Below are positions 4,477 to 59,146 of a DNA stretch of 64,000 nt, piece by piece. The stretch lies in NCBI GenBank assembly GCA_043824495.1, contig JBDRSV010000024.1, positions 1 to 64,000 on the forward strand, in the 5' to 3' direction. The notes below the pieces were generated by a model. That model had not been told where the DNA came from and ran no database searches. It was given only the letters and a program-made list of their open reading frames with translations. The translations under genes were made by a program, and so were the position numbers. The DNA comes from Candidatus Aenigmatarchaeota archaeon. Its GTDB lineage: Archaea; Aenigmatarchaeota; Aenigmatarchaeia; QMZP01. Numbering within the stretch: the stretch's first letter is position 1; each line of letters begins with the position of its first letter.

Positions 4477-4531
4477 TTCGGGTTTCTGAAAAGTTTATAG
4501 GCATGCATGAACAATAAATATTTAGATTAAA

Positions 4532-5335: not shown

Positions 5336-5772
5336 CGGAAAAAAAAGCCTCGCCGCTTAAAGAAATTCAAGAGAAAGTGAAATCACAGATTCCAGCTAGA
5401 AAGATTAATGAATATCTCAAACCTTTTGCAGATGTTCTTTTCACGAAACAGGAAAAAAAGAATATTGTAGAAAGAGTTTATTATCTTAGAATATATGCTA
5501 TGCTTGCATATGCTCTTGTTCTTATGAATAGTACAAGTTACAAAAGAGCTTTCAATAGATTAGAAATCCTAAAAAATCTTACTAGAAATCCCATAACTGA
5601 GAAGGAATCTATTTACGTGAAGCACATAGATGGTCTTGTTAGAAGCATAATAAAAGATAAGAAAAAAATAGTGATGCGTCTAAAAAAAGAAGAAAGTCAT
5701 GATCCTGTGCATGCAAAAACAAGATTACAACTAGCACAGAACATAAGTATAATCAGAATTCTAAAGAACTAA
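5323..5772 (+). CDS. Hypothetical basic, helical protein
   Basis: ORF overlapping the amidohydrolase stop and converging on the next gene (4-nt overlap). No recognised motif. Confidence 0.6.
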   Translation: MCVMTEKKASPLKEIQEKVKSQIPARKINEYLKPFADVLFTKQEKKNIVERVYYLRIYAMLAYALVLMNSTSYKRAFNRLEILKNLTRNPITEKESIYVKHIDGLVRSIIKDKKKIVMRLKKEESHDPVHAKTRLQLAQNISIIRILKN

Positions 5773-7199
5773 TCTTCTTCCTGAATCTCTTCTAATGATT
5801 TTCTAGCAATAACTATTTCCTTGAATAATCTCTTAGAATGGATTAAAGCTATTTCTCTTGATATGTCTTTTGTTAGAGGTCCTTTAGGATCAGCTCCTAA
5901 TTTCTTTGCCTCTGCCATTATTTGATCGGAGACGGTTTTTCTGTCATCTATCATCTTGGCAAAAGGATCTAACAATTTCTTATGACTTTTAGGGGCTAGC
6001 GTGGTTCCTAGTTTAAGTAACCTCTTACAGTATTCATAAACTTCATTATTTTCTAGACCATCAAAAGCAGCATGCTTCTGAAGTGTTTGTCTAACATATG
6101 TATGTGGTGGTATGTAGAGCGTGTTATCTTCCATCTTAAATGGATCCTTTATTCCAATATCAGATGCTACAACATTTATGAATTCTTCTTGGACTTCTTT
6201 TAGAATATACTTGATAAGCATTGATGCTGCAGTTATCATTAGAGGGTGATTCATATCCATGCCTCTCTGTTCAATTGTCCCGTTAGCATTGATCTTTACG
6301 GGGTTCCATGTTGTATCTAGAATAGAACCATGTTTTGCAAATACCCTGAATTTTATGTCAGCTTTTTTGAGAACATCCTTCCACATGTTATGCTTCTTAG
6401 AAATTAAATGAATAAGATCAGTACTTGTGTGTTTGTATGGTTGTAGTGCTCCAAAGTTTTGAAATTGTGCATACAATCCTTGTGGATAGTTGAAAACTGG
6501 ACCTCCTCTATATACAATCATTCTAGAATCCTTTCCCATATATCTTCCCTGATAAAAAGGAGATGATTGCATGAATGTTGTGAGACCAGGATCCATAGCT
6601 ATAAGCAAGTTATAAGAATTAACCATATTTTCTTTGTTTTTTGAATCTTTGAGATTTTTGATATGTTTGGTATTGGGATCAAATACTCCCCAAGGTAGTG
6701 TGTAATGGCAATGGAATCCAATACATCTACCAGCAATAGCGAATCTTGTCTTACCAAAGATTTGTTCTTTGATTTTGTATGGTTTGTCTGGTCTCATCTC
6801 TGGTGCAAATACTCCAGGATATGTTCCAAGAGTGAATATTTTATAGCCTTCTGTCTCTGCTGAAAGGAGCAGACCTTCAAAGCTTCGTATAATATTGAGT
6901 ACGGTATCTTGGATGGTGACATGTGGGAAACTTGTTAACTCAAGCATGTTTTTGCCAGCTTCCTTCTTTATGGTTATGTCAAGATAATTTTTCTTGACCG
7001 ATTTGAGTAGAACATCAGCTGTATTGACTACATCCCCTTCTTCGTTTAGAACAAACATCTCTGCTTCTAGCCCAAGCCTGATTTTTTTTACGTTCTTAGG
7101 CTTCTCTTTATCAATAGACATAGACTCTAAACTAAGTGTATTTTCGATGCTAACATTTTCCACCGCATTATTTACAATATTGATACTTTCTTCGTACAT
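5769..7199 (-). CDS. Glutamate-cysteine ligase family 2 (GCS2/YbdK-like) carboxylate-amine ligase
   Basis: LGLEAEMFVLN, KEAGKNMLEL, CIGFHCHY, SSPFYQG, SRM and IEQRGMD match the GCS2 pattern. Start placed at MYEE (7199). Confidence 0.78.
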   Translation of the reverse strand: MYEESINIVNNAVENVSIENTLSLESMSIDKEKPKNVKKIRLGLEAEMFVLNEEGDVVNTADVLLKSVKKNYLDITIKKEAGKNMLELTSFPHVTIQDTVLNIIRSFEGLLLSAETEGYKIFTLGTYPGVFAPEMRPDKPYKIKEQIFGKTRFAIAGRCIGFHCHYTLPWGVFDPNTKHIKNLKDSKNKENMVNSYNLLIAMDPGLTTFMQSSPFYQGRYMGKDSRMIVYRGGPVFNYPQGLYAQFQNFGALQPYKHTSTDLIHLISKKHNMWKDVLKKADIKFRVFAKHGSILDTTWNPVKINANGTIEQRGMDMNHPLMITAASMLIKYILKEVQEEFINVVASDIGIKDPFKMEDNTLYIPPHTYVRQTLQKHAAFDGLENNEVYEYCKRLLKLGTTLAPKSHKKLLDPFAKMIDDRKTVSDQIMAEAKKLGADPKGPLTKDISREIALIHSKRLFKEIVIARKSLEEIQEED

Positions 7200-44804: not shown

Positions 44805-45788
44805 TTAGAATAAATGATCATCTACAAGCCTTGCTTCCCCGCCAGGTTTGCATACAAGAACCTTTTCTATCCCTTTTATCTTGGATAATCTTTTTCCAAT
44901 TTCTTTTACATCTTTCTCTAAACACATTATCTTAACCTGAGGACCAGCATCGATTGTGAAGTAGCTTTCCAATCCTTCTTCTCTCCAGTCCATTACAGAA
45001 TGAATAACTCTCATAGTAACATCATTCCAGTAGATTATTGGAGGTTTTGTTGTCATCATGGTTGCATGCATTTTCAAACAATTATATTCGGCTGTCTCCC
45101 CAACTTTTGTGAAATTCTTTTCTTTTATCCCCTCTCTCACTTTATCTAAATCTTCATTCACAGTTTTTAGCCATCCATCATAATAAGGACACGTTGCAAC
45201 AGTTTGAGACATTCCTGCTCTACTTTTTACTTTTTTTTCTTTTGTTGATGTGATAACAGTAACAATTCTAAATTCTTTCCAGAAATTCTCGTCAGCTATT
45301 TGTACACCAAAAGAATCACTTCCGTCTTCTTTCTCTCCTTTAATCCATTCTACAAAACCGCCTTCTACAGATCTACTTGCAGATCCAGATCCTCTTCTAG
45401 AAAGAATTGAAAGTTCTTTTTTGTCTAAATTCAAGCCAGCAGCTTTTGCTCCTGCAACAGACAATGCGGCTAAACCAGACGCAGAAGAAGCTAATCCAGC
45501 AGCTACAGGAAAATTTCCTTTAGAAACTATCTTAGCTTTGTCTTTTATTCCAGCCATTTCTCTGATAACATCTAAATGGTCTAAAGTGCTAGCGCTTTCT
45601 AGTTCTTCTCCGTTGAGAATGAAAACATCCTTCTCATACTTAGGATCAAATTCGACAGTGGTATGAGTATTCAAATCACCTAGAGTCAAGGATATACTAC
45701 CATTATTAGGAAGCATAAGCTTTTTGTCCCTCTTTCCCCAATACTTAACCAATGCTATATTGGCATTAGCAATTGCTGTTGCTTTCAT
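44805..45788 (-). CDS. mvaD: Diphosphomevalonate decarboxylase
   Basis: ANANIALVKYWGK, GLASSASG, SGSASRS, KVKSRAGM, FTIDAGPQVK. Start placed at MKATA (45788). Confidence 0.92.
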   Translation of the reverse strand: MKATAIANANIALVKYWGKRDKKLMLPNNGSISLTLGDLNTHTTVEFDPKYEKDVFILNGEELESASTLDHLDVIREMAGIKDKAKIVSKGNFPVAAGLASSASGLAALSVAGAKAAGLNLDKKELSILSRRGSGSASRSVEGGFVEWIKGEKEDGSDSFGVQIADENFWKEFRIVTVITSTKEKKVKSRAGMSQTVATCPYYDGWLKTVNEDLDKVREGIKEKNFTKVGETAEYNCLKMHATMMTTKPPIIYWNDVTMRVIHSVMDWREEGLESYFTIDAGPQVKIMCLEKDVKEIGKRLSKIKGIEKVLVCKPGGEARLVDDHLF

Positions 45789-45835
45789 ACAATTCACTTT
45801 TATTTGTAATTATTATAATAAACATTTAAAAGTCT

Positions 45836-45908
45836 GCCCCGGTGGCTCAGTCGGTAGAGCGTTGCATTGGTAATGCAGAGGTCGCGGGTTCAATTCCCGC
45901 CTGGGGCT
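45836..45908 (+). tRNA. tRNA-Thr (anticodon GGT), no intron, CCA not encoded
   Basis: Cloverleaf: acceptor GCCCCGG/CTGGGGC, D arm GCTC/GAGC, anticodon arm TTGCA-TTGGTAA-TGCAG, T arm GCGGG-TTCAATT-CCCGC. Confidence 0.97.
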
Positions 45909-46121
45909 CTGCAATGTTTATAAATAAATGAATCAACTATAGCAATATGTCATAACCCCGATGTGGGACAGTTTGTTGACTAGTTAACAAATTGCGCAAA
46001 GTCGTGAGGTAATGGCATCCTGGTAGGCTCCAATCGTCTCGATATGGAGATATGAGAAGGTTTTTTGACTTTCGGATGATAAGAAGAAACCTGCTTATGG
46101 GGGTTCGACTGGCTCTTTTCT

Positions 46122-47345
46122 GTGCGAGCAGAAAACGGTACGGAAGTCCCCTCGACCCCACCTTACTCAGACTTGAAATCTCTTAAGTCTTCTGTAGTCA
46201 GTTCTGAGTCTTCAGACTGGGACATATACAATACTATACGACGGTATACTAACCATCTAAACAAAATACCACACTGGGATACAGCTGAAAATAACAAAGA
46301 ACTGATTCTAAATTTCTTGAAAAAGACAGAGATAGAAGGCATTGGACTAGTGCAAAGAGTCAAGTATGTGGATGCATTTCGTACCCTACTAACCGCTGTT
46401 AACAAAGATATGACCAAATTCACAGGTAAAGATCTGGAAGAATTCCTCTATCACATGAGAATCTACAAACCAAAAACAAGGCATACACGGTGGTACTCCA
46501 TAAAGAAATTCTTTAGGTACATAGACAAGAAGGACATCTACAACAACATAGAGCCCCATTTTGACAAGAAAGGAATGAAACTACCTGAAGAATTGCTAAC
46601 AGAAGATGACATCAAAAAGATGATTTCAGCAGCCAATAACATAAGAGATAAGGCTCTGATATCGGTTTTATACGAATCGGGTGCTAGAATAGGTGAACTC
46701 CTGACTAGAAGAAGAAAACACATCACATTCGACGATTATGGAGCAGTCATGACTGTGGATGGAAAGATAGGCATGAGGAGAGTAAGGCTAATACACTCTG
46801 TTCCTCTTCTAGCTAACTGGATGGAGAATCATCCAAAGAGAGATGATGACAATGTATTCCTTTGGATTAGTATGAATGATTATACAAATCCAGTCAAGTA
46901 CATGGCTATAGCCAATATGCTCAAGCTAACAGCCAAACATGCAGGAATAAAGAAGCGGATATATCCACATATATTCAGACATAGTAGAGCAACCTACATG
47001 GCCAACAAACTAACAGAACAACAACTAAAAGTATACTTCGGTTGGACTGGAGATAGTGCAATGGCTTCTACATATGTTCATCTATCAGGTAGAGATGTGG
47101 ATAACGCAATCTTGGAACTTAATGGAATAAAGGAGAAGACAGAAGAGAATGGAAACGGCTTCAAGGTAAAGAACTGTCCAAGGTGCAGAGTTAACTCTGA
47201 CCCCTCATCAAAATACTGTAATAGATGTGGTATGGTATTGGATGATAACGAAGCCTTTGATTTGAAAGATTTAACCTCAAATGAAGACTTCAAAGTCTTC
47301 CTACAAGAAGCATTCGTAAAATGGAAAGGTTCAAGAGTGGTTTAA
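46122..47345 (+). CDS. Tyrosine recombinase/integrase with C-terminal zinc ribbon (start uncertain)
   Basis: Complete catalytic set: YESGARIGEL (R), DGKIG (K), PHIFRHSRAT (HxxR), FGW, STYVHL (Y); then CPRC...YCNRCG. Lies about 210 bp downstream of tRNA-Thr. Confidence 0.92.
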   Translation: MRAENGTEVPSTPPYSDLKSLKSSVVSSESSDWDIYNTIRRYTNHLNKIPHWDTAENNKELILNFLKKTEIEGIGLVQRVKYVDAFRTLLTAVNKDMTKFTGKDLEEFLYHMRIYKPKTRHTRWYSIKKFFRYIDKKDIYNNIEPHFDKKGMKLPEELLTEDDIKKMISAANNIRDKALISVLYESGARIGELLTRRRKHITFDDYGAVMTVDGKIGMRRVRLIHSVPLLANWMENHPKRDDDNVFLWISMNDYTNPVKYMAIANMLKLTAKHAGIKKRIYPHIFRHSRATYMANKLTEQQLKVYFGWTGDSAMASTYVHLSGRDVDNAILELNGIKEKTEENGNGFKVKNCPRCRVNSDPSSKYCNRCGMVLDDNEAFDLKDLTSNEDFKVFLQEAFVKWKGSRVV

Positions 47346-47350
47346 TCTTT
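47032..47350 (+). repeat. Left copy of a ~319-bp direct repeat (integrase 3' end)
   Basis: Aligns with 49255-49573 at offset 2223; about 20 mismatches by hand count. Confidence 0.93.
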
Positions 47351-47423
47351 GGGAATTAATAATCAAACTTTTCGATTTAAATGATTATTCCTATCACTAT
47401 ATCCCGTTAAATAGACAATACAA

Positions 47424-47455
47424 ACCAGATTTGCGATATTTCACACAAATCTGGT
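47424..47455 (-). terminator. Inverted repeat just downstream of pepD, possible intrinsic terminator
   Basis: Perfect 10-bp stem ACCAGATTTG / CAAATCTGGT with a 12-nt loop, 20 nt beyond the pepD stop. Confidence 0.5.
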
Positions 47456-47475
47456 ACTGTTGGTATTGTAATAGA

Positions 47476-49035
47476 TCACTTCGCCAGTGCAGGTAAGAGA
47501 CAATACAGGAAAAGATAGATATCTGCAACTGAGGAAACCAGTAGTCTCTCGTTTGCGGTGTGAAGATTCTCGATTGTTGGACCTGTCGCGATGATGTTCA
47601 TCCCAGGATACTCACCGGATATCACTCCACACTCGACGCCTGCATGCACTGCAGTGATAGTCACTGAGTCACGTGGTGTTAGGTAATCGTTGTGTAGATC
47701 GTTCCAGGTTTTCCCTGCAATTTCGAGTAGAGGCGAATCAACTGGCTCCCAGTTTGGGAATGGAGAACCGAGACTTGCTTCTGCACCGAACCTCTGACTG
47801 ATATCGGTTATCACTTCTTTCAGTGAGTCGAGGTCAGACATGGAGAACGACCGAGTCAGCATCGAAACTGTGAGAGTATCGCTGTCAATCTTCACGCACA
47901 TGTTGGAAGATGTTTGTGGAATTCCTTCCAGATGTGACATGGAAATGACACCGTTAGGCAGACTCAGGATCATATCGATCATGTTTTGTGTTGCTCCATG
48001 ATACGAGATACTTGATTGAGGATTTAATCTCGTCAACTCCATCTTGAAATTAGGATCGGTCGTTGGCACAAATTCCGCTACAAAGTCTTTCAAGATTCGC
48101 CAGAAAGTATCTTCGATATCTCGAACTTCGGCTGGAGTAGCGAAAATGGCTGTTGCCGTGACTGGAATGGCATTGGATCTCTCACCGGCTTCCATACTGA
48201 GAAGAGTGATTGGAAACTGAGAGGAATATTCTTTCAGAACTCGAGCCATGATCACTGCTGCATTTCCGCGACCGTGAACGATATCCACCCCGGAATGTCC
48301 ACCTGTCAGTCCAGAGATATTCAGCTTCCATTCCCACATATCATTCTGTTTGGCGAGTGGAGGGAGAGGCAGAGTAATAGTGGAGCCGAAACCACCAGCA
48401 GATCCTGTGTAGATAACCCCAATCATCTCTCCGTCGAGATTGATCATGTACTCTGCTAAGAGTTTCAGATCGAGGTTGAAAGCACCGATGAGACCATTCT
48501 CCTCCTGGACGGTGAACAGAAGTTCAAGAGGTCCATGCTCGATGAGTTCATACTCTACAGGAATCGCTATTGTCAGTGCTATTGCAATTCCAATCCCGTT
48601 GTCAGCTCCAATGGTGGTTCCCTCTGCGCTCAGCCATTCATTGTCCAGTACCAGTTTGAGTGGGAATCCCGTGGAATCGAATTCCTTTCCAGCATCATCC
48701 AGACATACCATATCCAAATGAGCCTGGAGAGCAACGACAGGTGCGTTTTTAAATCCTCGAGTTGCCGGCACATGGACGAGCAGATTCCCGATGGTATCCT
48801 GTTGGGTTTCCCATCCATGTTCATCTGCAATTGAGCAGATCCAGTCAGCGAGTGCTTGCTCGTGACCCGGACAGTGTGGAATCGCGCTGATTTCCTCGAA
48901 GAGGTTAAAAGCCCTGTGATGTTTGTACACATCTACTGGATTGATTTCTCCGTACTCGCTTGCTGATCCTATGCTCGGTAACAAGACCAAGCAAAGACCC
49001 AAGCAGACTAAAAGAACGGTCTTTCTCGAGGTCAT
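47476..49035 (-). CDS. pepD: Aminoacyl-histidine dipeptidase (PepD, M20C) with a predicted signal peptide; compositionally foreign
   Basis: LQAHLDMVC, IGADNGIG, LFTVQEENGL, INLDGE, HAGVECG, GPTIENLH; hydrophobic N-terminus ending IGSA; GGGGAG ribosome-binding site; visibly more GC-rich than the flanks. Confidence 0.9.
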   Translation of the reverse strand: MTSRKTVLLVCLGLCLVLLPSIGSASEYGEINPVDVYKHHRAFNLFEEISAIPHCPGHEQALADWICSIADEHGWETQQDTIGNLLVHVPATRGFKNAPVVALQAHLDMVCLDDAGKEFDSTGFPLKLVLDNEWLSAEGTTIGADNGIGIAIALTIAIPVEYELIEHGPLELLFTVQEENGLIGAFNLDLKLLAEYMINLDGEMIGVIYTGSAGGFGSTITLPLPPLAKQNDMWEWKLNISGLTGGHSGVDIVHGRGNAAVIMARVLKEYSSQFPITLLSMEAGERSNAIPVTATAIFATPAEVRDIEDTFWRILKDFVAEFVPTTDPNFKMELTRLNPQSSISYHGATQNMIDMILSLPNGVISMSHLEGIPQTSSNMCVKIDSDTLTVSMLTRSFSMSDLDSLKEVITDISQRFGAEASLGSPFPNWEPVDSPLLEIAGKTWNDLHNDYLTPRDSVTITAVHAGVECGVISGEYPGMNIIATGPTIENLHTANERLLVSSVADIYLFLYCLLPALAK

Positions 49036-49254
49036 TTGACTCCCCTTTGCTCTGTACTGCGATTAAGAATTGTATATTAACTAACTCAAAGCACTACACG
49101 ACATACACACAATTGTCTTTCGTTGTCGCAGAGTGTTGTTTCCTGAAATACAGATGCTGACTTTACCTCGAACAAGGATCTTGTTCCAGATGTCTAAAGA
49201 GTGTCAGCGATGATATGTGGAATATGATAATTTCAATTGATAGTAAAATTTAAA

Positions 49255-49568
49255 TATACTTCGGTTGGACTGGAGACAGTGCAATGGCTTCTACATATGT
49301 CCATCTATCAGGTAGAGATGTAGATAATGCAATCCTAGAGCTCAATGGAATAAAGGAAAAGACAGAAGAGAATGGAAATGGTTTCAAAGTAAAGAAATGT
49401 CCAAGGTGCAGAGTTAACTCTGACCCCTCATCAAAATACTGTAATAGATGTGGTATGATCTTGGATGACAATGAAGCCTTTGATTTGAAAGATTTAACCT
49501 CAAATGAAGACTTCAAAGTCTTCCTACAAGAAGCATTCGTAAAATGGAAAGGTTCAAGAGAAGGTTAA
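49255..49568 (+). pseudogene. Integrase 3' fragment (second copy, from YFGW to stop)
   Basis: About 94% identical to 47032-47345 by hand count; no upstream integrase sequence before 49255. Confidence 0.88.
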
Positions 49569-49571
49569 TCT

Positions 49572-52500
49572 TTAACTATCTACAGGTAAGCCGCCACTCG
49601 GATCGCATGTGTTGACCTTTTTGCCGCCTATAATCTGCATGCAGTTGTCTACAATACTCCTCTTACATAATCCGTTTATATCACAAGTATATCCACTATA
49701 ACATCCACACTTGTTGCAATCATTAGAGAAGCTCCCATCAGAATCACAGAATAATGGCTTTCTTGTTGAACATTCACCATAAGTTATATCCCCTTCACAA
49801 ACAGGACACATCCCAGGGCTCTCCAGATCACCATTAGCAATTGCAATTATCCTAACAACATCAACTAAATTTATTCTATCATTCATGTCCACGTCAATAC
49901 AGCAAATATCTTCAGGTGTAGGAATATCTCCGACAAAAGCAATGTCATTTGCTAAATCAGAATCTGTGTGATTTATTACACCATCTCCATTTACATCACC
50001 AATTTGTTGTCCTGTATTACAAGGAAGAGAAGATTTTGTGGTTAATTCGAATCCATAAAATCCAGTATTATAGGAGTCATGTTGATATTGAGGCCATTCC
50101 ATTGTACTGGAATCATAGTTGTTGTCAAGGTCCCATGTTTTAGCAGTCAGATCACCTACCCATGAACCTTCACAATCTATATTTGGTCCAGAGTGTGTTA
50201 CCAGCTCCACATCTCCGTCATTATCAATATCATTAATGAGCGGAGTAGAATAGATCATCATGCAAGTATGATCAAGAATCTGTTTAGGAAATCCTTCAAT
50301 AGGTGTTCCATCTCCATGATATGCAACAACCATTTGGTTTCCAGGAGGTCCTGAATAAACACTACCCGCATAAGAAATTACATCTGGTAGATTATCACCA
50401 GTAATATCTCCTATAACTGCTTGCGTAAATACCCATCCACCCAATGAGTGCTTTGGCCAACCGTCAACAACTGTTCCATCATGATGCCACATATTTAGAT
50501 CATACCAATAAGTAGAATAAACTATTTCTAAATTACAATCACCGTCAATGTCTCCTAGACTAGGGATATTGTAATTATGAAAAGTGCTAGTTGCAATTGA
50601 TTCTTGAGGCCATCCCGGGAAAAGATTTCCATCCTTATCTAGAACGTAAATTTTCATCTCTGGGTGATTGTTCATTCCAAAAATAATTTCTTCTTGACCA
50701 TTACAATCTAAATCTCCAATAATAGGAACACCAGGAGTTCCAGGAAGAGAATATTCCCATAGCTTGACTTGATTATGCAGTGTGTATGCATAAACCTTAT
50801 CTGTGGCGGTTCCAAAAACAACATCAAGATACCCATCATCATTAATATCTGCAATTGCCTGGCCATAAATGGCTCCTCCGTCTGGGTATTCTGGTTCATC
50901 AAGATTAAGAGGATATCCTGGATAAAAGTTCCCTTCGTGATCAAAAACCTTTAATATAGGATCAGAATCTCCAATAATAATTTCTAAATAGCCGTCATTA
51001 TCAATATCCCCCATACTGGGTATTAAACTTCCTCCTTGATTTGTATGGTATCTAAAAAGCTCGTCTCCAGCAGTATTAAAAACATGCAATCTTGCACCAT
51101 GAGTAATGGCAATTTCTAGCTCTCCGTCATTATTAATATCTCCAATTGCAGATGTTGTGCCGCTTGATTTGAACGTAGGCCAGCCAGTTACTGGACTTCC
51201 ATCATGATGCCAGGAATAAAATTCCGGGTCATCACCAAAATTCTGGTTTGCGAAAGATACTTCTAAATCAGAATCACCATCATAATCTGCAGCCGATATG
51301 GACGAAACAGAACTTATACTATCTAATAATACTGGCCACCCTGTTTGAATACCTGAATCATCTTCAATGTAATAAAGTGTCCTCTCCTCACCAATAAGAA
51401 CTCCTCCGGAATTGTATACACTGAGATAAACAAAATAATAAGAATCTTCTTGAACAATTCCACTTGTGTCAAATGTTCCTAAAACCCCATTTATTATTGG
51501 GGAAAATCCTGTTTGAATTGGAATAAAATCTTCATTGGGCTTAAATAATGCATAACCAGTATACTCAGCCTTTACATATTCAAGTGTATATCGTTCAAAA
51601 TTCTCAGCGTTTGCATTTCCAATTATATTAATACTGTTTCCATGTGTAATCTCAGAATAGTATTTTGGCGATTTTATTTTTATATTCTCTACTATGATGA
51701 CACTAGCATCTTCACTTATATCTCCAGTTGAAGGATAAACGCTTAATTTTATGTCGTAATCCCCATTCAAAGCAGATGGATCATATCCAGCGCAAAGTAC
51801 TTCGCTCTCTTTAGGAATATCAGAGGTACAAATAAGATCCCAGTTTTCTAGGTTCCTCTCAGAGATATAAAGATCATAATAAGAAAATCCTCCGCCCATC
51901 GCTGTTCCAATGAAATCAATACTTAAGCCTTCAATTGCTCCATTTGTTTCTATTTCTGCTACAAGAGGACTAGTTAAATTGAAAGCTTCTGCAATATCTA
52001 TTCTTCCTTGGCCTTGTGTCCCAATTGGTTCTCCGATGTCTACTGCCGTATTTCTTAAAGCTGCTTTTATTTCTAAAGGGCTCCAATCGGGATGAGACTG
52101 TTTTAATAATGCAACTGCTCCAGCAACTATTGGCGTAGCCATAGAAGTTCCTGCGACTTGTAGATGCTGATCATCTAAGCAAGGATGGTAATAAGGATGT
52201 TCACCTTCTGGAAATATAGAATCATATCTTGCTGCACAAGTTATTGCTCCTGGTGCAACAACATCGGGTTTATATATTGCCCCATTATCCCATATCACTG
52301 GTCCTCTGGAACTAAAGCTTGTTATCTGATCTACTATTGGATTACTATCTTCCCAATATTGACACCATATCTGCCCTTCAGCTGGACAACTCCATTCACC
52401 ACAAAACACTCCATTAAAAGGTGATGATGTGCAGTTCCACCAAAAATCATCATAATTTTTCTTGTATGTTGCTCCGACAGTAATAGCCTTTTTTGCTGTT

Positions 52501-53675
52501 CCAGGACTGCCAACAGTTTCTTCTCTTGGGCCACTGTTTCCTGCAGCTATAACTGCAATAACACCCAAATCAACAATATTATTAACTGCTTGTGAGACTG
52601 GATCTTCTGGTCCACAAAATTCACTGTATCCCCAACAGTCTGCTCCTAAACTTAAACTTATAATATCTAAATGATCATCAAAATTTTCATCTTGGTTTGG
52701 ATCTGCTGACATTTCTATACCCTCTATGACTGCATCAAATGTGCCGCTACCTCTAGAATTTAATACTTTATATGCATAGATCTTTGCATCGGGTGCAATC
52801 CCGTTTATTATACCGTTTCCAGCTGCGCTTGCTGCGCAATGAGTTCCATGACCTTCATCATCTATTGGGTCCGGATCATCATTTACAATATCATATCCTC
52901 CTTCAACTTTACACCCAGCTCCAAAACATCCTCCAAGATCAGGATGTGTATAATCTACACCAGTATCAATAATTCCAATAGTTATTCCTTCTCCTGTAAT
53001 AGGAACTGCTTCAATTTCTCTTGCCCAAACATCGTCAGCATTAATTAGTGGGACAGCGTCCATCAAATTCATTTTAACTTCGTAATTAGGGTAAACTTCT
53101 TTGACTTCTGCAATTTTTTTAATGTCTTCTGCTTCCTTTTGAGAAATTTCTGAAACAAAAAATCCATTAAAAACATCACTGTAGCTCTTTGTAATGCTGG
53201 CTTTTGGGGCCAAATTTATTATTTGAGTTATTGTAGCTGATTGTTTTTCGATAATATTGTTCTTATAGTTCGATAAAATCGATTTTGATAGTGCTGTTTG
53301 TGAACGAGTTTTATATTCTACAACCGGAGCATCGCGAAGTTGTACAAGATAACCATTAAAATTAGGTCTTTGCTCATAAGCTCTGAATCCAAGCGAGTTC
53401 TTTTCAGCTAAATTTTCTGATTCCGGAGGGTTAATTCTTTCCGGCTCTTCACAAACTTCTTCCTCATCCACTAATCCATCACAATCATTATCTATACCAT
53501 CACACTTTTCTATAGAAGGAGTGCATGCTGGTTCCAAAGGAGCGGTTATTATTGTAGGTTCTAAAGTCCTCAAAGGAGCTCTGAATTCCCCTGCGGGATA
53601 ATAAGATACTCCAACAACACCAGAAATAACAACCACAGCAATTATAACAGCGATAATAATAGGAGATAAATTCAT
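49572..53675 (-). CDS. S8 subtilisin-like protease with N-terminal membrane anchor, Cys-rich motif, I9-like propeptide, FG-GAP/VCBS-like repeats and a dockerin-like C-terminus
   Basis: Triad GIIDTG / DEGHGTHCA / GTSMATP; repeated GDIDNDGxLEI units; GDVNGDGVINHTD...DVDMNDRINLVD paired Ca-binding loops. Confidence 0.92.
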   Translation of the reverse strand: MNLSPIIIAVIIAVVVISGVVGVSYYPAGEFRAPLRTLEPTIITAPLEPACTPSIEKCDGIDNDCDGLVDEEEVCEEPERINPPESENLAEKNSLGFRAYEQRPNFNGYLVQLRDAPVVEYKTRSQTALSKSILSNYKNNIIEKQSATITQIINLAPKASITKSYSDVFNGFFVSEISQKEAEDIKKIAEVKEVYPNYEVKMNLMDAVPLINADDVWAREIEAVPITGEGITIGIIDTGVDYTHPDLGGCFGAGCKVEGGYDIVNDDPDPIDDEGHGTHCAASAAGNGIINGIAPDAKIYAYKVLNSRGSGTFDAVIEGIEMSADPNQDENFDDHLDIISLSLGADCWGYSEFCGPEDPVSQAVNNIVDLGVIAVIAAGNSGPREETVGSPGTAKKAITVGATYKKNYDDFWWNCTSSPFNGVFCGEWSCPAEGQIWCQYWEDSNPIVDQITSFSSRGPVIWDNGAIYKPDVVAPGAITCAARYDSIFPEGEHPYYHPCLDDQHLQVAGTSMATPIVAGAVALLKQSHPDWSPLEIKAALRNTAVDIGEPIGTQGQGRIDIAEAFNLTSPLVAEIETNGAIEGLSIDFIGTAMGGGFSYYDLYISERNLENWDLICTSDIPKESEVLCAGYDPSALNGDYDIKLSVYPSTGDISEDASVIIVENIKIKSPKYYSEITHGNSINIIGNANAENFERYTLEYVKAEYTGYALFKPNEDFIPIQTGFSPIINGVLGTFDTSGIVQEDSYYFVYLSVYNSGGVLIGEERTLYYIEDDSGIQTGWPVLLDSISSVSSISAADYDGDSDLEVSFANQNFGDDPEFYSWHHDGSPVTGWPTFKSSGTTSAIGDINNDGELEIAITHGARLHVFNTAGDELFRYHTNQGGSLIPSMGDIDNDGYLEIIIGDSDPILKVFDHEGNFYPGYPLNLDEPEYPDGGAIYGQAIADINDDGYLDVVFGTATDKVYAYTLHNQVKLWEYSLPGTPGVPIIGDLDCNGQEEIIFGMNNHPEMKIYVLDKDGNLFPGWPQESIATSTFHNYNIPSLGDIDGDCNLEIVYSTYWYDLNMWHHDGTVVDGWPKHSLGGWVFTQAVIGDITGDNLPDVISYAGSVYSGPPGNQMVVAYHGDGTPIEGFPKQILDHTCMMIYSTPLINDIDNDGDVELVTHSGPNIDCEGSWVGDLTAKTWDLDNNYDSSTMEWPQYQHDSYNTGFYGFELTTKSSLPCNTGQQIGDVNGDGVINHTDSDLANDIAFVGDIPTPEDICCIDVDMNDRINLVDVVRIIAIANGDLESPGMCPVCEGDITYGECSTRKPLFCDSDGSFSNDCNKCGCYSGYTCDINGLCKRSIVDNCMQIIGGKKVNTCDPSGGLPVDS

Positions 53676-53857: not shown

Positions 53858-54268
53858 ATGAAGAGGAAAGCACAGGCAGCTTTTGAGTACATGATGATTG
53901 TCGGTATAGTTCTGCTTTTCATAGTGCCTGTGTGGTCTTACATGAATACAGTACACAAAGATACAACCAATGAGCTTTATTTCAGTTATGCAAGGAATGC
54001 TGTAACAAAGATAGTGGATACTGCTGAACTTGTTTATTCTCAAGGACCTCCAGCAAGTGTGCAAGTCGTTGTTTACATACCAAAATATGTGGAGGAAATA
54101 AACATCACCGGCACAACAATTAACATAAGATTAAATATAGGAGATGTTAATGATGTGAATGGTTTTGGTATAGCTCCTCTTAATGGTAGCTTGCCAACAA
54201 CGGAAGGGTCTTACGTAATCAAAATAGAAGCAATAGATGATTATGTTAATATCAGCTTAGCTAATTAG
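53858..54268 (+). CDS. Type IV pilin-like protein (class III signal peptide)
   Basis: MKRKAQ|AAFEYMMIVGIVLL: K-A-Q cleavage motif, Glu near +5, hydrophobic helix. Confidence 0.8.
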   Translation: MKRKAQAAFEYMMIVGIVLLFIVPVWSYMNTVHKDTTNELYFSYARNAVTKIVDTAELVYSQGPPASVQVVVYIPKYVEEINITGTTINIRLNIGDVNDVNGFGIAPLNGSLPTTEGSYVIKIEAIDDYVNISLAN

Positions 54269-54380
54269 ATTGTGTGTTTTATTCTACATGAGAAATAGAT
54301 ATTCTTACAAGAAGAAAAAAAGAAAAATAATATTAAAAATAAAAAAATGGAAAAATTCTAACCATCTACGATGGGATATC

Positions 54381-54875
54381 CTACGAAGCAGTACCGGTCA
54401 ATGTACCAGAGCTTGTAAATCCTGTTAATCCAGTATCTAGGTTATCATATGTTATTCGGATATCGACTGTGTATGATGATCCTGCTGCTGGACCTGATAT
54501 TTGAGGCATAGAAATTTTTTGTTCTTGGTTAATATTCATAGCTCGAGGTCCGTTTGTTCCAGTTGTGGTTATATTCCAACCTGCAACCTCTGCATATGGA
54601 TAATTTATGCCTCCGTATGTTGCTTGTATACCTGTTATGTTAATGTTTGCTCCAACTCCATTAGTTAATATAAATGTTACCTGTGTGGAGTTCATCTGCC
54701 AACCGCCTGCCTGGATGTTGAATCCTTGGAAACCTGTAGATGTTGATTGTGTAAAGGTTCCTGGGTTAAATAATCCAAGTGCAAATAATGCTGCGGCAAC
54801 TATAACTACAATTAGTATTGCCCATCCGTATGTCATCAGATATTCCATCGCTGCTTGTGCTTTTAAATGTTTCAT
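54381..54875 (-). CDS. Archaeal type IV pilin, probable major pilin
   Basis: LKAQAAMEYLMTYGWAILIVVIVAAALFALGLFNP, a common euryarchaeal/DPANN pilin N-terminus. Confidence 0.88.
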   Translation of the reverse strand: MKHLKAQAAMEYLMTYGWAILIVVIVAAALFALGLFNPGTFTQSTSTGFQGFNIQAGGWQMNSTQVTFILTNGVGANINITGIQATYGGINYPYAEVAGWNITTTGTNGPRAMNINQEQKISMPQISGPAAGSSYTVDIRITYDNLDTGLTGFTSSGTLTGTAS

Positions 54876-54964
54876 TAATTTAACACCCTTTATATTGTTG
54901 TGTTTTAATTACTATTTGGTCTAGCACCCTTATAAACATTAAAACTGATATTTTTTTCTAAAAA

Positions 54965-55918
54965 CTAAACAGATGCTATTACACCGAACATTATACCTAT
55001 CATGAGTTTTGCTCCGAAAAAGATAGCAAGAGCTCCTACAACAAATATGGGTAAGAATTTAATTCCACCCTTTTCTTTACCGGTACTAATCAAACCCATA
55101 ATTAAACTACCAAAAATAGTTGTAATTAATATAGAAGCAATTGAGAATAGGAAAAGAAATTCTTCTGATATTTTTACTACACCAAAACTCATGAAAGACG
55201 AACCCGAACTTACAGTCTCAGGTACAACAACATTAGCACCTAGCTGTGTTATAGAGCCTATCAAATAAGACGATAATGCGTATAATGCAGGAGCTGCTAT
55301 TACACCTGCAAATCCTATGAAGATTATGTAAAGCATAATGTTTGCACTTACTTCCTTCTTGATTACTTGAATTCTTCTAAGGTCTGTAGCATTCTCTTCG
55401 AGTAATGTAGCAAATTGTCCTCCTGATTTACTACCTTCTACTATCAGTTTCAAAGTTCTATCAAGCATTTCTGATTTTATGTAATAGCCAACTTTGTGTA
55501 TACTCTCTTCTAAGCTCTTACCTGTAACCATCTCTTTACCTACAAGTTTAATGGCATCTGATAGAGGACCAAATTCTGGTCTCGCACTGAGTAACAAGGC
55601 TCTGCTAGGTATATATCCAGCTCTACTGTTAGCAGACATTAACTGTAATGCATCAGGCAATATATTCTCAACAAATTTTGATCTCCTTTCAACTCCCATT
55701 ATAAGAAAACCATGAAGAAGTACAAACAAACCAACGAATACCCCAACAAATACGTAATATGTGTAAGGAGCTGAGACTAAAGCAGCCACGAAGCCTACAA
55801 GTAAACTTAGTATTACTGCAGAGTCTACGAAAGTCTTCGAACTCTTTTTACTACCAGAATACCTAAGATTGGTTTCTATATATTTCGTATATTTCCTTGG
55901 AACTATTTTATGAAACAT
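54965..55918 (-). CDS. TadC/T2SS-F family pilus platform protein
   Basis: LPDALQLMSANSRAG, EFGPLS, SGGQFATLLE; multiple TM segments. Confidence 0.88.
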   Translation of the reverse strand: MFHKIVPRKYTKYIETNLRYSGSKKSSKTFVDSAVILSLLVGFVAALVSAPYTYYVFVGVFVGLFVLLHGFLIMGVERRSKFVENILPDALQLMSANSRAGYIPSRALLLSARPEFGPLSDAIKLVGKEMVTGKSLEESIHKVGYYIKSEMLDRTLKLIVEGSKSGGQFATLLEENATDLRRIQVIKKEVSANIMLYIIFIGFAGVIAAPALYALSSYLIGSITQLGANVVVPETVSSGSSFMSFGVVKISEEFLFLFSIASILITTIFGSLIMGLISTGKEKGGIKFLPIFVVGALAIFFGAKLMIGIMFGVIASV

Positions 55919-55927
55919 ATTTTTCTC

Positions 55928-56821
55928 CTATATACCTGGAGGTCTCTTGGACTTTATAAGACCCATAAACATGAATTGGAATAACGTTACCGTACCTAAT
56001 ATACCAAGTAGTACTAGCTCAACATTGAATACCGTTCCTACGAAAGAGAACAGTACGAGTATGAAGATTATGCCTAATGTAGGGAAAACAACAACAAGAA
56101 CCATGTAGAAAAGAGCCAATGGATTTAATTCAGACCCGTATTTCTTGATTGCTACTTTCTGTTCCATCACGAGATTGTCAACTATTTCTTTCAGAGTGTC
56201 ACCAATATCTGCACCGCTCTTCAATGCATTAATTAGTTGCCATAGGATTCTACGGAAATATAATGAAGCATTATCCCTGGCTAATAATTCAAGAGCTTCT
56301 ATTTCTGATCTCCCTGTATTAATTTCATTGACCGCTTTCTTAAATTCAGCTGAAACTTCTCCGTATTCACTTCTAGCAATAGACATCATGGAATCGAAAA
56401 GGGTAACACCAGATCTAACCTGAACTAAGAAATGATGTAGTGTATGAGGTAAGAAACCGTCTATCGCTTTAACTTTTCTATTGACAAATAGTCTCGGGTA
56501 AATCATCAAATAGATGAATGATACGAAACCTAAAGCACCTCCAACTCCAACTGCAATTAAGAAGCTTCTTGCTAGTTCTAATCTGAAACCTAAACCAAAG
56601 ACAAGTACAAACACAAAGAAAAGAATGAAATAGAGAAGCCCTGTAGCAAAAGCAATACCCATCCATTCTCTTGGGGATACGTCCATTTCAGAATGTTTTA
56701 GTTGAAACTCTAAGGTAGGGGAGAAAACAGTTAGACTCTCACCGATACCAACATATCTTCTTGTCAAAGTTTTGGCCTTTTCAAGTGGTAAAGGAACAAA
56801 AGGAATTCTCTTCTTTTTCAT
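55928..56821 (-). CDS. TadB/TadC (T2SS-F family) pilus platform protein
   Basis: LPHTLHHFLVQVRSG, YGEVSAEF, SGADIGDTL; multiple TM segments. Confidence 0.88.
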   Translation of the reverse strand: MKKKRIPFVPLPLEKAKTLTRRYVGIGESLTVFSPTLEFQLKHSEMDVSPREWMGIAFATGLLYFILFFVFVLVFGLGFRLELARSFLIAVGVGGALGFVSFIYLMIYPRLFVNRKVKAIDGFLPHTLHHFLVQVRSGVTLFDSMMSIARSEYGEVSAEFKKAVNEINTGRSEIEALELLARDNASLYFRRILWQLINALKSGADIGDTLKEIVDNLVMEQKVAIKKYGSELNPLALFYMVLVVVFPTLGIIFILVLFSFVGTVFNVELVLLGILGTVTLFQFMFMGLIKSKRPPGI

Positions 56822-56834
56822 ATCACACCAGGAA

Positions 56835-58331
56835 TTATGGCTTTAGCGTGCCCTTTCTTAGCTTCTTCATTATGCTATCTTGGTCTATATAATATTCAGA
56901 TATTATTCTGCCTACAGAATTTATGTCATATACTTTATTCTTAACTAACCAGTCTAGCACACTCATTTTTTCTTTTATATCAGCATCAATTTCTTTCTCA
57001 TTCATACCAGCGAATAATTTAATATCCTCTAGAGCTCTTCTAGATTTTCCTGATTTCACAATCCTATCTGTTGAAGGAGACCAACGGTAGATTGTGTTTA
57101 ATTCGATTTTTATCTCGTCTAATCCACCAGGAATAAGCTCTGAAACCTGAATGACTCTTCTGATTTCTCTTCTCCTATCTCTATGCATAACTACGATAAG
57201 CTGTAGAGAGTTTAATAGAGCTGCTGGAATGTCTATTGGAGGGTTTGTCAATCTTCTGTAAGTTTCTTCTGCTGTGTTTGCGTGAAGAGTTGAATATACA
57301 GAGTGTCCTGTGTGAATAGCTTCGAATAAAACCTCTGCTTCCCTCTTTCTCCTAATCTCACCTACAACAATTCTATCAGGTCTCATTCTAAGAGCGTTAA
57401 TCATAAGCTGAAGCATTGTGACTTCTCCTTTACCTTCAGTGTTAGGAGGTCTCGTAGTCATTGGTACCCATTGAAGATATTTAGGAAGTTGTAGTTCTCT
57501 AGTATCTTCAATTGAAATTACTCTGTGGTTAGGTGGTATGAAAGATGTAAGAACATTGAGCAAAGAAGTTTTACCGCTTGCTGTACCTCCTGGTATGATT
57601 ATGTTCATTTCGTATTGTGTTGCTAGCCATAGGAACGCGGCTACTTCAGTAGTAATGGTCCCTTGTTCTACAAAGTTTGTTATAGTCCAAGGAGTTCTAG
57701 CGAACTTTCTCACTGTTAGAGTGTTACCGGTTGCACTGACTGGGAATAGAGTAGCGTTAGCCCTATCTCCTGTAGTTAGATAAGCATCCATAAGTGGGTT
57801 CAAATGGTTTATTTGGACACCAACTCTTCTACCAATCATAGCTGCATAGTTGTATATTTCTATTTCACTTTTTAGTGGTATGTTTGTTTTTAGCCATCCC
57901 AAACTTCTATGATAAACCCATACTGGTTCTTTTGAATTGTTGATAACGATCTCTTCTAGATTATTGTCTTGTAATAGAATTTCTATTGGACCTAAACCCA
58001 ATGAGTTGTGTATGAGTATTCCTGTTAAAATCTTTCTCTCTTTCTCGTTTATGTCTGGTAGTTGCTCCTTAATCAAAGGAGCAGATTTATCTATAAATGA
58101 TTTTTTTAGTTTTGTAAGTTCTTCTGGGTCTAAAATTTCTGCCGTCTTAACCATTATATGAGAAAGCATCTCTTCTCTTATTTCATCAAGAACAGCTATT
58201 GTAGCTGTTTCTATCTGAGGAAAAATAAGTTCATATAGAGGAACAAAATCTGTTACACTCTTTTTTATTGTTATCTTTGCCGGAACGTCATCAATTACTA
58301 GTTGATATGTCTCTAATACTTCGTTCTTCAT
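56835..58331 (-). CDS. Type II/IV secretion ATPase (TadA/CpaF/FlaI-like)
   Basis: Walker A GGTASGKTS, SIEDTREL, ALRMRPDRIVVGEIR, TGH and STLHAN. Confidence 0.95.
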   Translation of the reverse strand: MKNEVLETYQLVIDDVPAKITIKKSVTDFVPLYELIFPQIETATIAVLDEIREEMLSHIMVKTAEILDPEELTKLKKSFIDKSAPLIKEQLPDINEKERKILTGILIHNSLGLGPIEILLQDNNLEEIVINNSKEPVWVYHRSLGWLKTNIPLKSEIEIYNYAAMIGRRVGVQINHLNPLMDAYLTTGDRANATLFPVSATGNTLTVRKFARTPWTITNFVEQGTITTEVAAFLWLATQYEMNIIIPGGTASGKTSLLNVLTSFIPPNHRVISIEDTRELQLPKYLQWVPMTTRPPNTEGKGEVTMLQLMINALRMRPDRIVVGEIRRKREAEVLFEAIHTGHSVYSTLHANTAEETYRRLTNPPIDIPAALLNSLQLIVVMHRDRRREIRRVIQVSELIPGGLDEIKIELNTIYRWSPSTDRIVKSGKSRRALEDIKLFAGMNEKEIDADIKEKMSVLDWLVKNKVYDINSVGRIISEYYIDQDSIMKKLRKGTLKP

Positions 58332-58342
58332 GAATTACACCG

Positions 58343-59146
58343 CTAATGTTTTCTCCTCTTCCATAGCCAGATCTTTATTGACTTCAGTTTGAATTTGAGT
58401 ATTACCAGTATTGCAATTATTGCTATGATTACTATTAGGAATATTGGAACATAAAGCTGAGTATCTAGGCCTCCTCCCATTGCATCGTTTATAGGGTTCA
58501 TTATAGGAGCTATAATAGCAGTCAAACTGCTATATGGGTTACCTACATCAAAAGGAAGTAGGTTTCTTACACTCAACCAATATACCATGAGTAATACAAC
58601 CACAACAACTATGACCAGGATGACTGGTTTTTTCTTAGATCTTTTATGTGGTCTTGTTAGTTTATCTATCTTTTCTTCTGTTGTTTCTACACCTTTAATT
58701 TTCTTTCCTCGTTTAGGTTTGTATCCCTTTATTCTTATCACAACTTTACCCATTACTGGGTAATGTAAATCAACTAAACCATGAGATTCTAGAATTTCTG
58801 CCCATTTTTCTAATCTCTTTTTATCAACTTTTAATCTGGAAGCAGCGGCCTCTAAACCAACACTCTTTTCTTTTTCAATGATATGAAGAAGTTTATCAAC
58901 ATTTGTTTCTATGTAACCTTCTATATGGCCTTGACCTTCAACTTTTTCTCCACCCTTCCCCTTTACTTTTTTCTCAACAATTGCGCTGGGTTTCTGGGAT
59001 TCTTTGAAAAGACCTTCTCTTTTCAGTCTAATTACAGAGAACTGAACATCAAGCTTGGACAGAGTAAGTTTCTTGCTTATTTCTTCTACGGTCTTGCCTT
59101 CTTTAAGAAATTCCAATATTTTCTTGTCTGATGTTGTAATTTTCAT
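58343..59146 (-). CDS. Membrane protein with two N-terminal winged-HTH-like domains and two C-terminal TM segments
   Basis: KTVEEISKKLTLSK..V..L.REGL and SVGLEAAASRLKVDKKRLEKWAEILESHGLV; two hydrophobic helices; co-oriented with the ATPase. Confidence 0.65.
   Translation of the reverse strand: MKITTSDKKILEFLKEGKTVEEISKKLTLSKLDVQFSVIRLKREGLFKESQKPSAIVEKKVKGKGGEKVEGQGHIEGYIETNVDKLLHIIEKEKSVGLEAAASRLKVDKKRLEKWAEILESHGLVDLHYPVMGKVVIRIKGYKPKRGKKIKGVETTEEKIDKLTRPHKRSKKKPVILVIVVVVVLLMVYWLSVRNLLPFDVGNPYSSLTAIIAPIMNPINDAMGGGLDTQLYVPIFLIVIIAIIAILVILKFKLKSIKIWLWKRRKH

Follow-up and report, generated by a model that had tools for sequence, protein, structure and literature searches.

The first 64 kb of a 172-kb contig from a Candidatus Aenigmatarchaeota archaeon (hereafter the window, 64,000 nucleotides of a metagenome-assembled genome of 1.01 Mb in 29 contigs, 80% complete) contain an intact tyrosine integrase gene whose 3′ end occurs a second time, as a diverged copy, 2,223 bp downstream. 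A GC-rich cassette with a pepD-like dipeptidase gene on the opposite strand is located between the two copies. The arrangement is most likely the result of recombination inside the resident integrase gene, by which DNA carrying an allelic integrase 3′ end together with the cassette displaced the resident 3′ end. We put this reading forward tentatively, as the leading one among several that are weighed below.

Two diverged 3′ ends of an integrase gene

The integrase gene (positions 46122–47345, plus strand) encodes a protein of 407 residues with a C-terminal C4 zinc ribbon (PF00589, E = 3e-19). It lies 212 nt downstream of a tRNA-Thr gene with the anticodon GGT (45836–45909, plus strand), which was detected by ARAGORN and Rfam (RF00005, 71 bits). 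The last 314 nt of the integrase gene and the 5 nt beyond it constitute copy 1 of the repeat (47032–47350, plus strand), which completes the intact gene. Copy 2 (49255–49573, plus strand) has an open frame, includes an open reading frame (ORF) of 94 aa (49284–49568, plus strand), and appears to be the displaced or relic 3′ end of a second integrase allele. The two copies align without gaps over 319 nt with 93.7% identity, 1,904 nt lie between them, and no third copy was found anywhere in the 1.01-Mb genome. The left edge of the homology falls in the codons for K-V-Y-F of the conserved LKVYFGW block, just before the codons of GW and the catalytic Tyr, and the right edge lies 5 nt beyond the TAA stop codon in both copies. 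The original prediction, made from the sequence of the window, had described a tRNA-Thr gene, an intact integrase, an opposite-strand GC-rich pepD and a second 319-bp copy of the 3′ end that begins abruptly just before the GW and Tyr codons, and each of these elements was recovered.

Of the 20 mismatches between the copies, 16 are transitions and 16 are at third codon positions. The Nei-Gojobori method assigns 16 of them as synonymous and four as non-synonymous (dN/dS = 0.052, dS = 0.31), the latter affecting N/K, V/I, and the last two codons, in agreement with the earlier count of about 20 mostly synonymous differences. When random substitutions were simulated with the observed transition share, four or fewer non-synonymous changes appeared in 0 of 20,000 trials if all 20 changes were taken as neutral, and with a probability of 0.045 if 10 were neutral and 10 synonymous. 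Copy 2 contains no stop codon and no frameshift within its homologous part. Because of the low dN/dS and the rejection of neutral decay in the simulation, the two copies diverged as working genes in separate lineages, rather than by decay in place, and were joined recently. The earlier view of them as coding alleles, and not as a neutrally decaying duplicate, is thus upheld.

The mismatches are unevenly spread: the first 218 nt contain 17, the following 88 nt contain none, and the remaining three are in the last two codons. A mismatch-free run of 88 nt has a probability of 0.026 given 20 mismatches in 319 nt, and the identical tract hints at a crossover or conversion tract. At the left edge of copy 1 there is a 10-nt palindrome, AAGTATACTT (47029–47038); palindromes of this length cover 1.2% of the genome, and five of them occur in the integrase gene. 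Short-word BLAST and exact matching revealed no repeat of at least 12 nt of the tRNA or its 3′ flank at a plausible position for attR, as had been stated from inspection of the sequence. No match of at least 12 nt was found between the tRNA-Thr region and the integrase gene, and no exact repeat of at least 8 nt at any junction.

Support for the assembled order

Only one public run contains the stretch; it is labelled as a groundwater metagenome, was probably made from the source sample, and is available as contigs, with no joints reported. A second run, X2, contains almost nothing of the stretch. The region is covered with 100% identity by four independent Logan contigs from the first run, which break exactly where 31-mers become common to both copies. 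At all four edges of the repeats, the bridging contig has copy-specific variants and no differing letters. The depths are 40.9 on the integrase side, 47.9 for the pepD piece, 62.4 for a short, mostly shared piece, and 38 on the protease side.

The original prediction had named a misassembly or a strain chimera as a possible refutation. The genome is metagenome-assembled, and the Logan contigs, built with k = 31, break inside the identical stretches; taken alone, they are also compatible with an empty site and a 2,223-bp circle. Against an artefact of this kind, whether a two-strain chimera or a mis-joined repeat, stand the four bridged edges, the similar depths, and the joint between cassette leader and copy 2, which cannot be created by any shared 31-mer. 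The contig ends of the genome provide a further argument. Nine of the 14 overlapping contig-end pairs found overlap by 140–141 nt, and therefore an assembly k of 141 is inferred; words of this length reach across the identical stretches of 60 and 88 nt and thereby settle the order. We regard an artefact as highly improbable. Contig ends with overlaps of 140–141 nt include the start of C28 with the end of C5 and the end of C1 with the end of C14, and several contigs are joinable in this manner. A join between the end of contig C7 (an integrase tail) and the start of C5 (a cassette leader) was ruled out, as these ends have no overlap.

The pepD unit and the motif-tagged cassettes

The pepD-like gene (47476–49035, minus strand) encodes a predicted M20 dipeptidase of 519 aa with an N-terminal signal-like segment. 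Its product scores 406 bits on the NCBIfam model TIGR01893 for beta-Ala-His dipeptidase (cut-off, 343.75), with residues 38–515 matching positions 2–475 of the 478-position profile, and this match places it in the PepD/beta-Ala-His dipeptidase family. The GC content of the gene is 0.478, compared with approximately 0.36–0.39 in the flanks, and its GC at third codon positions (GC3) is 0.47, compared with 0.22–0.26 in the neighbouring host genes. The best database relatives are approximately 40% identical, and the named ones are mostly bacterial. The gene was not found in the genomes of 40 relatives, and the nearest relative found is a paralog with 45% identity that belongs to another cassette of the same genome (C24:90254–91792).

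Downstream of pepD, in the gene's own orientation, a terminator-like hairpin with a 12-bp stem (47423–47456, minus strand) lies just past the stop codon. Folding of 47395–47480 on the minus strand gave −22.8 kcal/mol (z = −3.1), and one of 200 shuffled sequences was as stable. The hairpin is followed by a 27-nt boundary motif, TATATCCCGTTAAATAGACAATACAAA (47398–47424, plus strand), which runs antisense into the 3′ end of pepD, and by an AT-rich spacer of 47 nt (47351–47397) that reaches to copy 1. In this spacer, upstream of the motif, similarity to other cassettes or to relatives extends only weakly. At the other end, a 5′ leader (49079–49254, minus strand) carries a TATA-like box (TTTAAAT) at its outer end and touches copy 2. 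Because motif, hairpin, pepD, and leader are all present, the 1,904 nt between the integrase ends appear to be one complete cassette plus the 47-nt spacer.

The motif has the consensus TATATCCCTTTAA(A/T)TAGACAATA(T/C)AAA, and the most frequent 13-mer of the genome is part of it. With at most two mismatches allowed in a 17-nt core, there are 17 sites in the genome, on contigs C5, C11, C24, and C29, including a single one in the window. All 17 mark a jump in GC content, from 0.27–0.44 to 0.42–0.58. Inspection of the contexts revealed a hairpin after every motif, with a sequence that differs in each cassette. In the 16 islands with clear ORFs, the large genes are always opposed to the motif, which lies just beyond the gene 3′ ends. 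The motif was found in eight of 24 other genomes of the same family and in none of 16 genomes of other families, and the reversed control gave 0–1 hits. By these features pepD is one of at least 17 GC-rich, partly bacterial, imported cassettes in the genome. According to Pfam, the cargo includes a second pepD with an M32 carboxypeptidase, a protein with a type IX secretion sorting domain, a sigma-70 factor, a STAS protein, acyl-CoA and 3-hydroxyacyl-CoA dehydrogenases, and FHA proteins; many cargo ORFs have no match. Another frequent 13-mer, GATAATGATTGTGAT, was ruled out as a cassette end, being a coding repeat of surface proteins.

The leader is 81–82% identical over 140–182 nt to the leaders of two of the 16 other cassettes (C24:108116–108254 and C5:2–183). 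The similarity to the C5 copy reaches base 49254, the last before copy 2, where the leader ends in the TATA-like box. The other 14 cassettes have, on inspection, only short repeated words in common with it, and the leader folds no better than shuffled sequences (z = −0.9). In the Rfam scan of 45700–49700 the tRNA alone had a meaningful score, with no match at the 3′ end of the cassette at E values up to 5, and 60 kb of DNA from other cassettes gave no match at gathering thresholds. The 27-nt motif was not present as isolated halves more often than by chance, and no unoccupied target site was therefore identified. When the DNA around another cassette was searched, one 66%-identical piece on a short contig was obtained, in which no empty site was readable.

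Several other places in these genomes touch on the cassettes. The 17th motif-tagged island (C24:111233–114830) has a GC content of 0.50 and a length of 3.6 kb, with no long ORF and no Rfam match at gathering thresholds. In a relative (locus L058, G008:C27, 11445–11542), the 27-nt motif occurs 4 nt past the 3′ end of a tRNA-Met gene, antisense as after the cassette genes, so that the motif may be a more general marker of gene 3′ ends or may reflect an insertion at a tRNA. Between two cassettes, at the leader end of one of them, lies an AT-rich, host-like ORF of 134 aa (C24:108290–108694, corresponding to L029:4290–4694), in a position that matches that of the integrase fragment. Its product contains a zinc ribbon of the form CxxC...CxxC, matches a helix-turn-helix weakly, and may resemble the N-termini of transposases.

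No apparent general link between integrase and cassettes

A flank-to-flank comparison of the 17 cassettes revealed a long duplication at the pepD cassette only, the other 16 being without one. No integrase was noticed beside these 16 cassettes, which were not checked cassette by cassette for this point. Of 14 motif loci from relatives, one has an integrase of the present family, 3.6 kb away, and one has a distant Xer-like gene. On these comparisons no general link between integrase and cassettes appeared. The original prediction had proposed an integrase-centred gene-capture locus, and its central idea is only partly borne out: recombination inside the integrase gene with a displaced 3′ end fits the layout, whereas a locus dedicated to capture is not supported, in view of the 16 of 17 cassettes without a duplication, the single motif locus of 14 with a family integrase, and the rarity of the layout among other integrase loci (1 of 95, described below). 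We consider a dedicated integrase-centred capture system unlikely.

The integrase and its relatives

An alignment of the integrase with seven relatives shows that Arg189, Lys215, His283, Arg286, Trp308, Tyr318, and the four Cys residues of the zinc ribbon are invariant; the true start may lie further inside the ORF. In the protein collection we found 2791 full-length relatives, the closest being 60% identical, with names that refer to Nanoarchaeota, Aenigmarchaeota, or simply an archaeon. The protein falls below the cut-off of the NCBIfam XerA model (108 bits against 220). With the integron-integrase model TIGR02249 it scores 46.4 bits (cut-off, 265), and the match spans residues 90–221 only. 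Pfam yields PF00589 and a sub-threshold PF22822 only, and PF16795 is not matched. By these profile comparisons it is neither an integron integrase nor an SSV-type 'suicidal' integrase. There are six matches in the genome, with no int(N) piece among them. The other full-length member, on contig C15, has surroundings of flat, host-like GC content.

Genomic context

Copy 2 and the gene of an S8 subtilase with FG-GAP repeats (49572–53675, minus strand, 1367 aa; PF00082, E = 1e-56) are convergent, and 3 nt separate their stop codons. The protease gene has a host-like GC3 of 0.22. Because copy 2 abuts this convergent gene with 3 nt between the stops, it looks native to its site. In G001, a genome of the same genus, the genes that flank the block adjoin with their order kept (MVD on one side and the genes at 53858–59146 on the other), and the 8 kb from the tRNA to the protease (45.8–53.8 kb) are replaced by approximately 2.2 kb with two unrelated genes. 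The tRNA-to-protease block is therefore a variable spot. An empty site was not readable in G001, which has the whole block swapped for other genes.

The 212-nt spacer between the tRNA-Thr and integrase genes (45910–46121) has a raised GC content of approximately 0.44–0.47 and an antisense ORF of 74 aa with no Pfam match. A frequent 15-nt word, present at many sites in the genome (e.g., 53478–53492), codes for the repeated Cys-rich motif 'DNDCDG' of large surface proteins, the S8 protease among them.

Recurrence of the layout

The original prediction had called for a comparison of related loci with other cargo between an integrase and an integrase 3′ fragment. No other case of an integrase with a copy of its own tail on one contig was found in 47 genomes of the same family. 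For a broader survey, loci were fetched via the alignment of the integrase family, 80 from species-representative genomes and 79 from metagenomes, and each integrase gene was compared by BLAST with its own locus. Loci with at least 2.5 kb downstream of the gene were treated as informative (57 + 38 = 95 loci).

Only one of these 95 other loci has a full integrase together with its own 3′ fragment. This locus, L163, is a 7.49-kb contig of another Aenigmatarchaeota genome with the integrase at 3886–5067, the cargo at 5278–6896, and the 3′ copy at 6916–7140. The second copy corresponds to the last 225 nt of the gene with 89.8% identity and an offset of 2,073 bp (dN/dS = 0.054, dS = 0.63). The cargo is 1.85 kb of AT-rich DNA with a PIN protein, a wHTH-nucleotidyltransferase, and small ORFs, and the locus contains no 27-nt cassette motif. 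The full-length integrase of L163 has a premature TAG, while the frame of the fragment is open. Two further loci have a second integrase copy: L150 contains diverged full and partial copies approximately 9–10 kb apart with 70% identity, and L176 contains two adjacent diverged copies.

Fragments of the gene are more widely distributed. Of 371 genomes from the phylum, 106 contain the integrase tail. Nine of their loci in which the open frame is short were fetched. Four of these are true lone 3′ relics, which start at approximately residues 219, 249, 277, and 281; a further two are full genes with frameshifts, another two are truncated by contig ends, and the last is a gene interrupted by approximately 1.3 kb. 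Another lone relic (G004:C52) starts after the Tyr codon, at approximately residue 320. The protein collection holds 16 stand-alone C-terminal pieces against the 2791 full-length relatives. From this distribution, integrase 3′ relics are a low-frequency, recurring by-product with variable breakpoints. The breakpoints vary between approximately residues 219 and 320, and therefore one fixed site inside the gene does not fit.

Two genomes contain clusters of family integrases, with five in 32 kb at G190:C5:46–78 kb and two with identical scores 5.9 kb apart at G194:C153:9–15 kb, which look like integration hot spots or tandem elements. In L252 (G183:C19, 4190–6622), a family integrase is apparently interrupted at approximately residue 168 by an insert of approximately 1.3 kb.

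Comparison with known systems

The closest known arrangement is that of the element e14 in icd of E. coli, where an intact gene with an element-borne 3′ end and a displaced icdC pseudogene are described (PMC13626634). In both systems, the inserted DNA carries the 3′ end of the intact gene and a displaced C-terminal fragment lies at the far end of the insert. The differences between the two ends are likewise few and conservative, and excision would rebuild a chimeric gene. An intact gene and a displaced 3′ fragment with mostly silent differences thus flank the insert here as in icd, and L163 is a second case. In contrast, e14 is a prophage of 15 kb that has a site-specific system of its own and a defined att core, whereas the insert here is 1.9 kb and carries pepD only and no recombinase. 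The target gene also differs in that it is itself an integrase gene here.

The internal att site of SSV-type integrase genes generally matches a stretch of a tRNA gene exactly. The present locus resembles those of SSV1, pTN3, and pT26-2 in having an archaeal tyrosine integrase, a recombination point inside the gene of the integrase itself, and an Int(C)-like piece with the catalytic Tyr. It differs from an int(N)/int(C) pair in that the gene is whole, the protein matches PF00589 only, no int(N) partner exists, and no sequence is common with the neighbouring tRNA. According to a review, archaeal SSV-type integrase genes are split by integration and the classical type keeps an intact gene; the 'suicidal' integrases are assigned there to PF16795 (Phage_integr_3), with the att site inside their own gene (PMC8371274). 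A table in this review lists the pNOB8 integrase as classical. The original statement that integration splits SSV1/pNOB8-type integrases thus stands for the SSV type and, on this table, fails for pNOB8, whose gene stays intact.

Archaeal integrons and clusters of attC sites without an integrase were described by Ghaly et al. in 2022 (PMC9668308). Integron cassettes share with the present unit a promiscuous foreign cargo, a 3′ element that resembles a recombination site, and, at this locus only, an adjacent tyrosine recombinase. The differences are in the arrangement: a single cassette lies on the opposite strand, with its own leader and promoter, facing the integrase, and the other 16 are scattered over four contigs. 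The attC sites consist of paired imperfect inverted repeats, from which the 3′ element here, a conserved 27-nt sequence plus a variable hairpin, may differ. By inspection, without a dedicated attC model, no complementary copy of the motif was found across the hairpin. There is no cassette array beside the integrase, and its score is far below the cut-off of TIGR02249, in line with the proposal that the locus is not a canonical integron. Compared with the motif-tagged cassettes of its own genome, the pepD unit has all their marks (GC-rich cargo, 3′ hairpin, antisense 27-nt motif, and shared 5′ leader), and it is the sole one with a long flanking duplication and the sole one seen beside an integrase gene. 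An integrase gene as the landing site of a cassette did not appear among the listed results of literature searches on archaeal integrons and attC sites and on SSV- and pNOB8-type integrases.

Possible origins of the arrangement

In the reading that we tentatively favour, the starting state would be a resident integrase allele (B) lying tail to tail with the S8 protease gene. Incoming DNA from a related lineage would have carried the last ~320 bp of another allele (A), the 47-nt spacer, and the complete pepD cassette, and would have recombined with the resident gene inside its coding region. The incoming 3′ end would now complete the integrase, and the resident one would lie 2,223 bp downstream, as a fragment in which decay has not yet set in. 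Homologous recombination, or illegitimate recombination facilitated by homology, most likely made the join; a crossover or conversion would have taken place in the repeat, and the second joint would be where the cassette naturally ends on its promoter side. This mechanism is favoured because the fragment starts exactly at the promoter end of the cassette, there is no att remnant, and the 88-nt tract resembles a conversion tract. We do not think that a dedicated, integrase-catalysed capture reaction made the join. A joint at the cassette end predicts that the fragment starts right after the last base of the leader, 49254, which random deletion does not.

Several points weigh against this origin. 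A tandem pair of integrases followed by a deletion yields the same end state, and both tandems (L150, L176, G194:C153, and G190:C5) and variable lone relics exist. Single-protein scans of genome and metagenome contigs did not find a close integrase allele, the nearest full-length relative being the 60%-identical one. No donor, empty site, circle, or population variant was seen; the source run is available only as contigs. Homologous recombination is inefficient at 6% divergence. The natural 5′ end of the cassettes is known from three leaders only, one of which ends at a contig end. The palindrome at the breakpoint seems only mildly unusual, and the 88-nt identical run is only marginally so.

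The main rival, a relic of a tandem array, is somewhat less likely. An element with integrase A and the pepD cassette would have been integrated in tandem with integrase B next to the protease gene, and a later deletion would have taken out the remainder of element A, with any att site, as well as the first ~910 bp of integrase B. The tandem or clustered family integrases just named support this scheme, as do the lone 3′ relics elsewhere in the phylum, with their starts at approximately 219, 249, 277, 281, and 320, the 16 stand-alone pieces against the 2791 full-length proteins, and the variability of the tRNA-to-protease block, which is absent at the syntenic place in G001. The synonymous bias fits it equally well. 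However, the left end of the deletion must hit the promoter end of the cassette exactly while sparing 319 nt of useless integrase sequence, and two integrations plus a deletion are required. Nor was any att repeat of the tRNA found that would point to canonical tandem integration, not even for the extant element. In an unlikely third scheme, an att site inside the gene, around AAGTATACTT at 47029–47038, would accept an integrase-less circle (an integrase 3′ end plus a cassette) by site-specific recombination, with the integrase gene as a capture platform. The duplication indeed starts abruptly in the 10-nt palindrome, within the family's most conserved block, the first 22 nt of the repeat show no mismatch, and the unit of L163 is similar in size (2,073 against 2,223 bp) with other cargo. 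The archaeal 'suicidal' integrases, as outlined in the review cited above (PMC8371274), likewise carry att inside their own gene. This scheme conflicts with the breakpoints, which are at codon 304 here and at approximately 325 in L163 and differ also among the lone relics, with the occurrence of the architecture in just one of the 95 other informative loci, and with the 16 of 17 cassettes without a flanking duplication. PF16795 is absent from the integrase, which also fails to match the integron-integrase and XerA models; an identity of 22 nt is ordinary at 6% divergence, and a coincidence with a palindrome has a chance of approximately 4% within the gene.

The fragment could in principle be a working small gene for a 94-aa zinc-ribbon protein that starts at a conserved Met, is possibly expressed from the TATA-like box at the cassette end, and was selected after an older duplication. 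Its frame is open, the ATG at 49284 is ~30 nt downstream of the TATA-like box, dN/dS is low, the fragment of L163 is open while the full-length copy has a TAG, and stand-alone C-terminal ORFs exist elsewhere. However, these are 16 pieces against 2791 full-length proteins, each in a cluster of 1–5 sequences and several on contigs shorter than 2.5 kb, and their starts fall on internal Met codons that are conserved and that a gene caller would choose in any relic. A small gene of this kind is thus very improbable.

Implications

By itself the duplication is of modest significance, as a replaced 3′ end with a displaced fragment is known from e14/icd and integrase relics are common. The locus matters more because a complete member of a family of imported cassettes lies between the copies. 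This motif-tagged cassette family in a DPANN archaeon is apparently undescribed, although no literature search aimed at the 27-nt motif was made. The second locus with the same layout and different cargo indicates that such events recur, though rarely. The pepD cassette is the sole one in the genome with both outer joints readable against known sequence, namely two alleles of one gene. Therefore, the inserted unit can be delimited to 1,904 nt, and a concrete mobility assay is offered.

A more far-reaching reading, which we regard as a long shot, is that the duplication is the first footprint of how the motif-tagged cassettes of Aenigmatarchaeota move. A cassette would leave its donor as a small circle via its natural promoter end (…TTTAAA), would use on the other side a look-alike site in the neighbouring integrase gene (TATAC…, similar to the motif start TATAT…), and would re-enter another genome through integrase homology. 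If this is true, the cassettes travel as ~2-kb circles for which integrase genes, conserved and widespread as they are, would provide the landing pads, and the enzyme at work could be the intact hybrid integrase itself.

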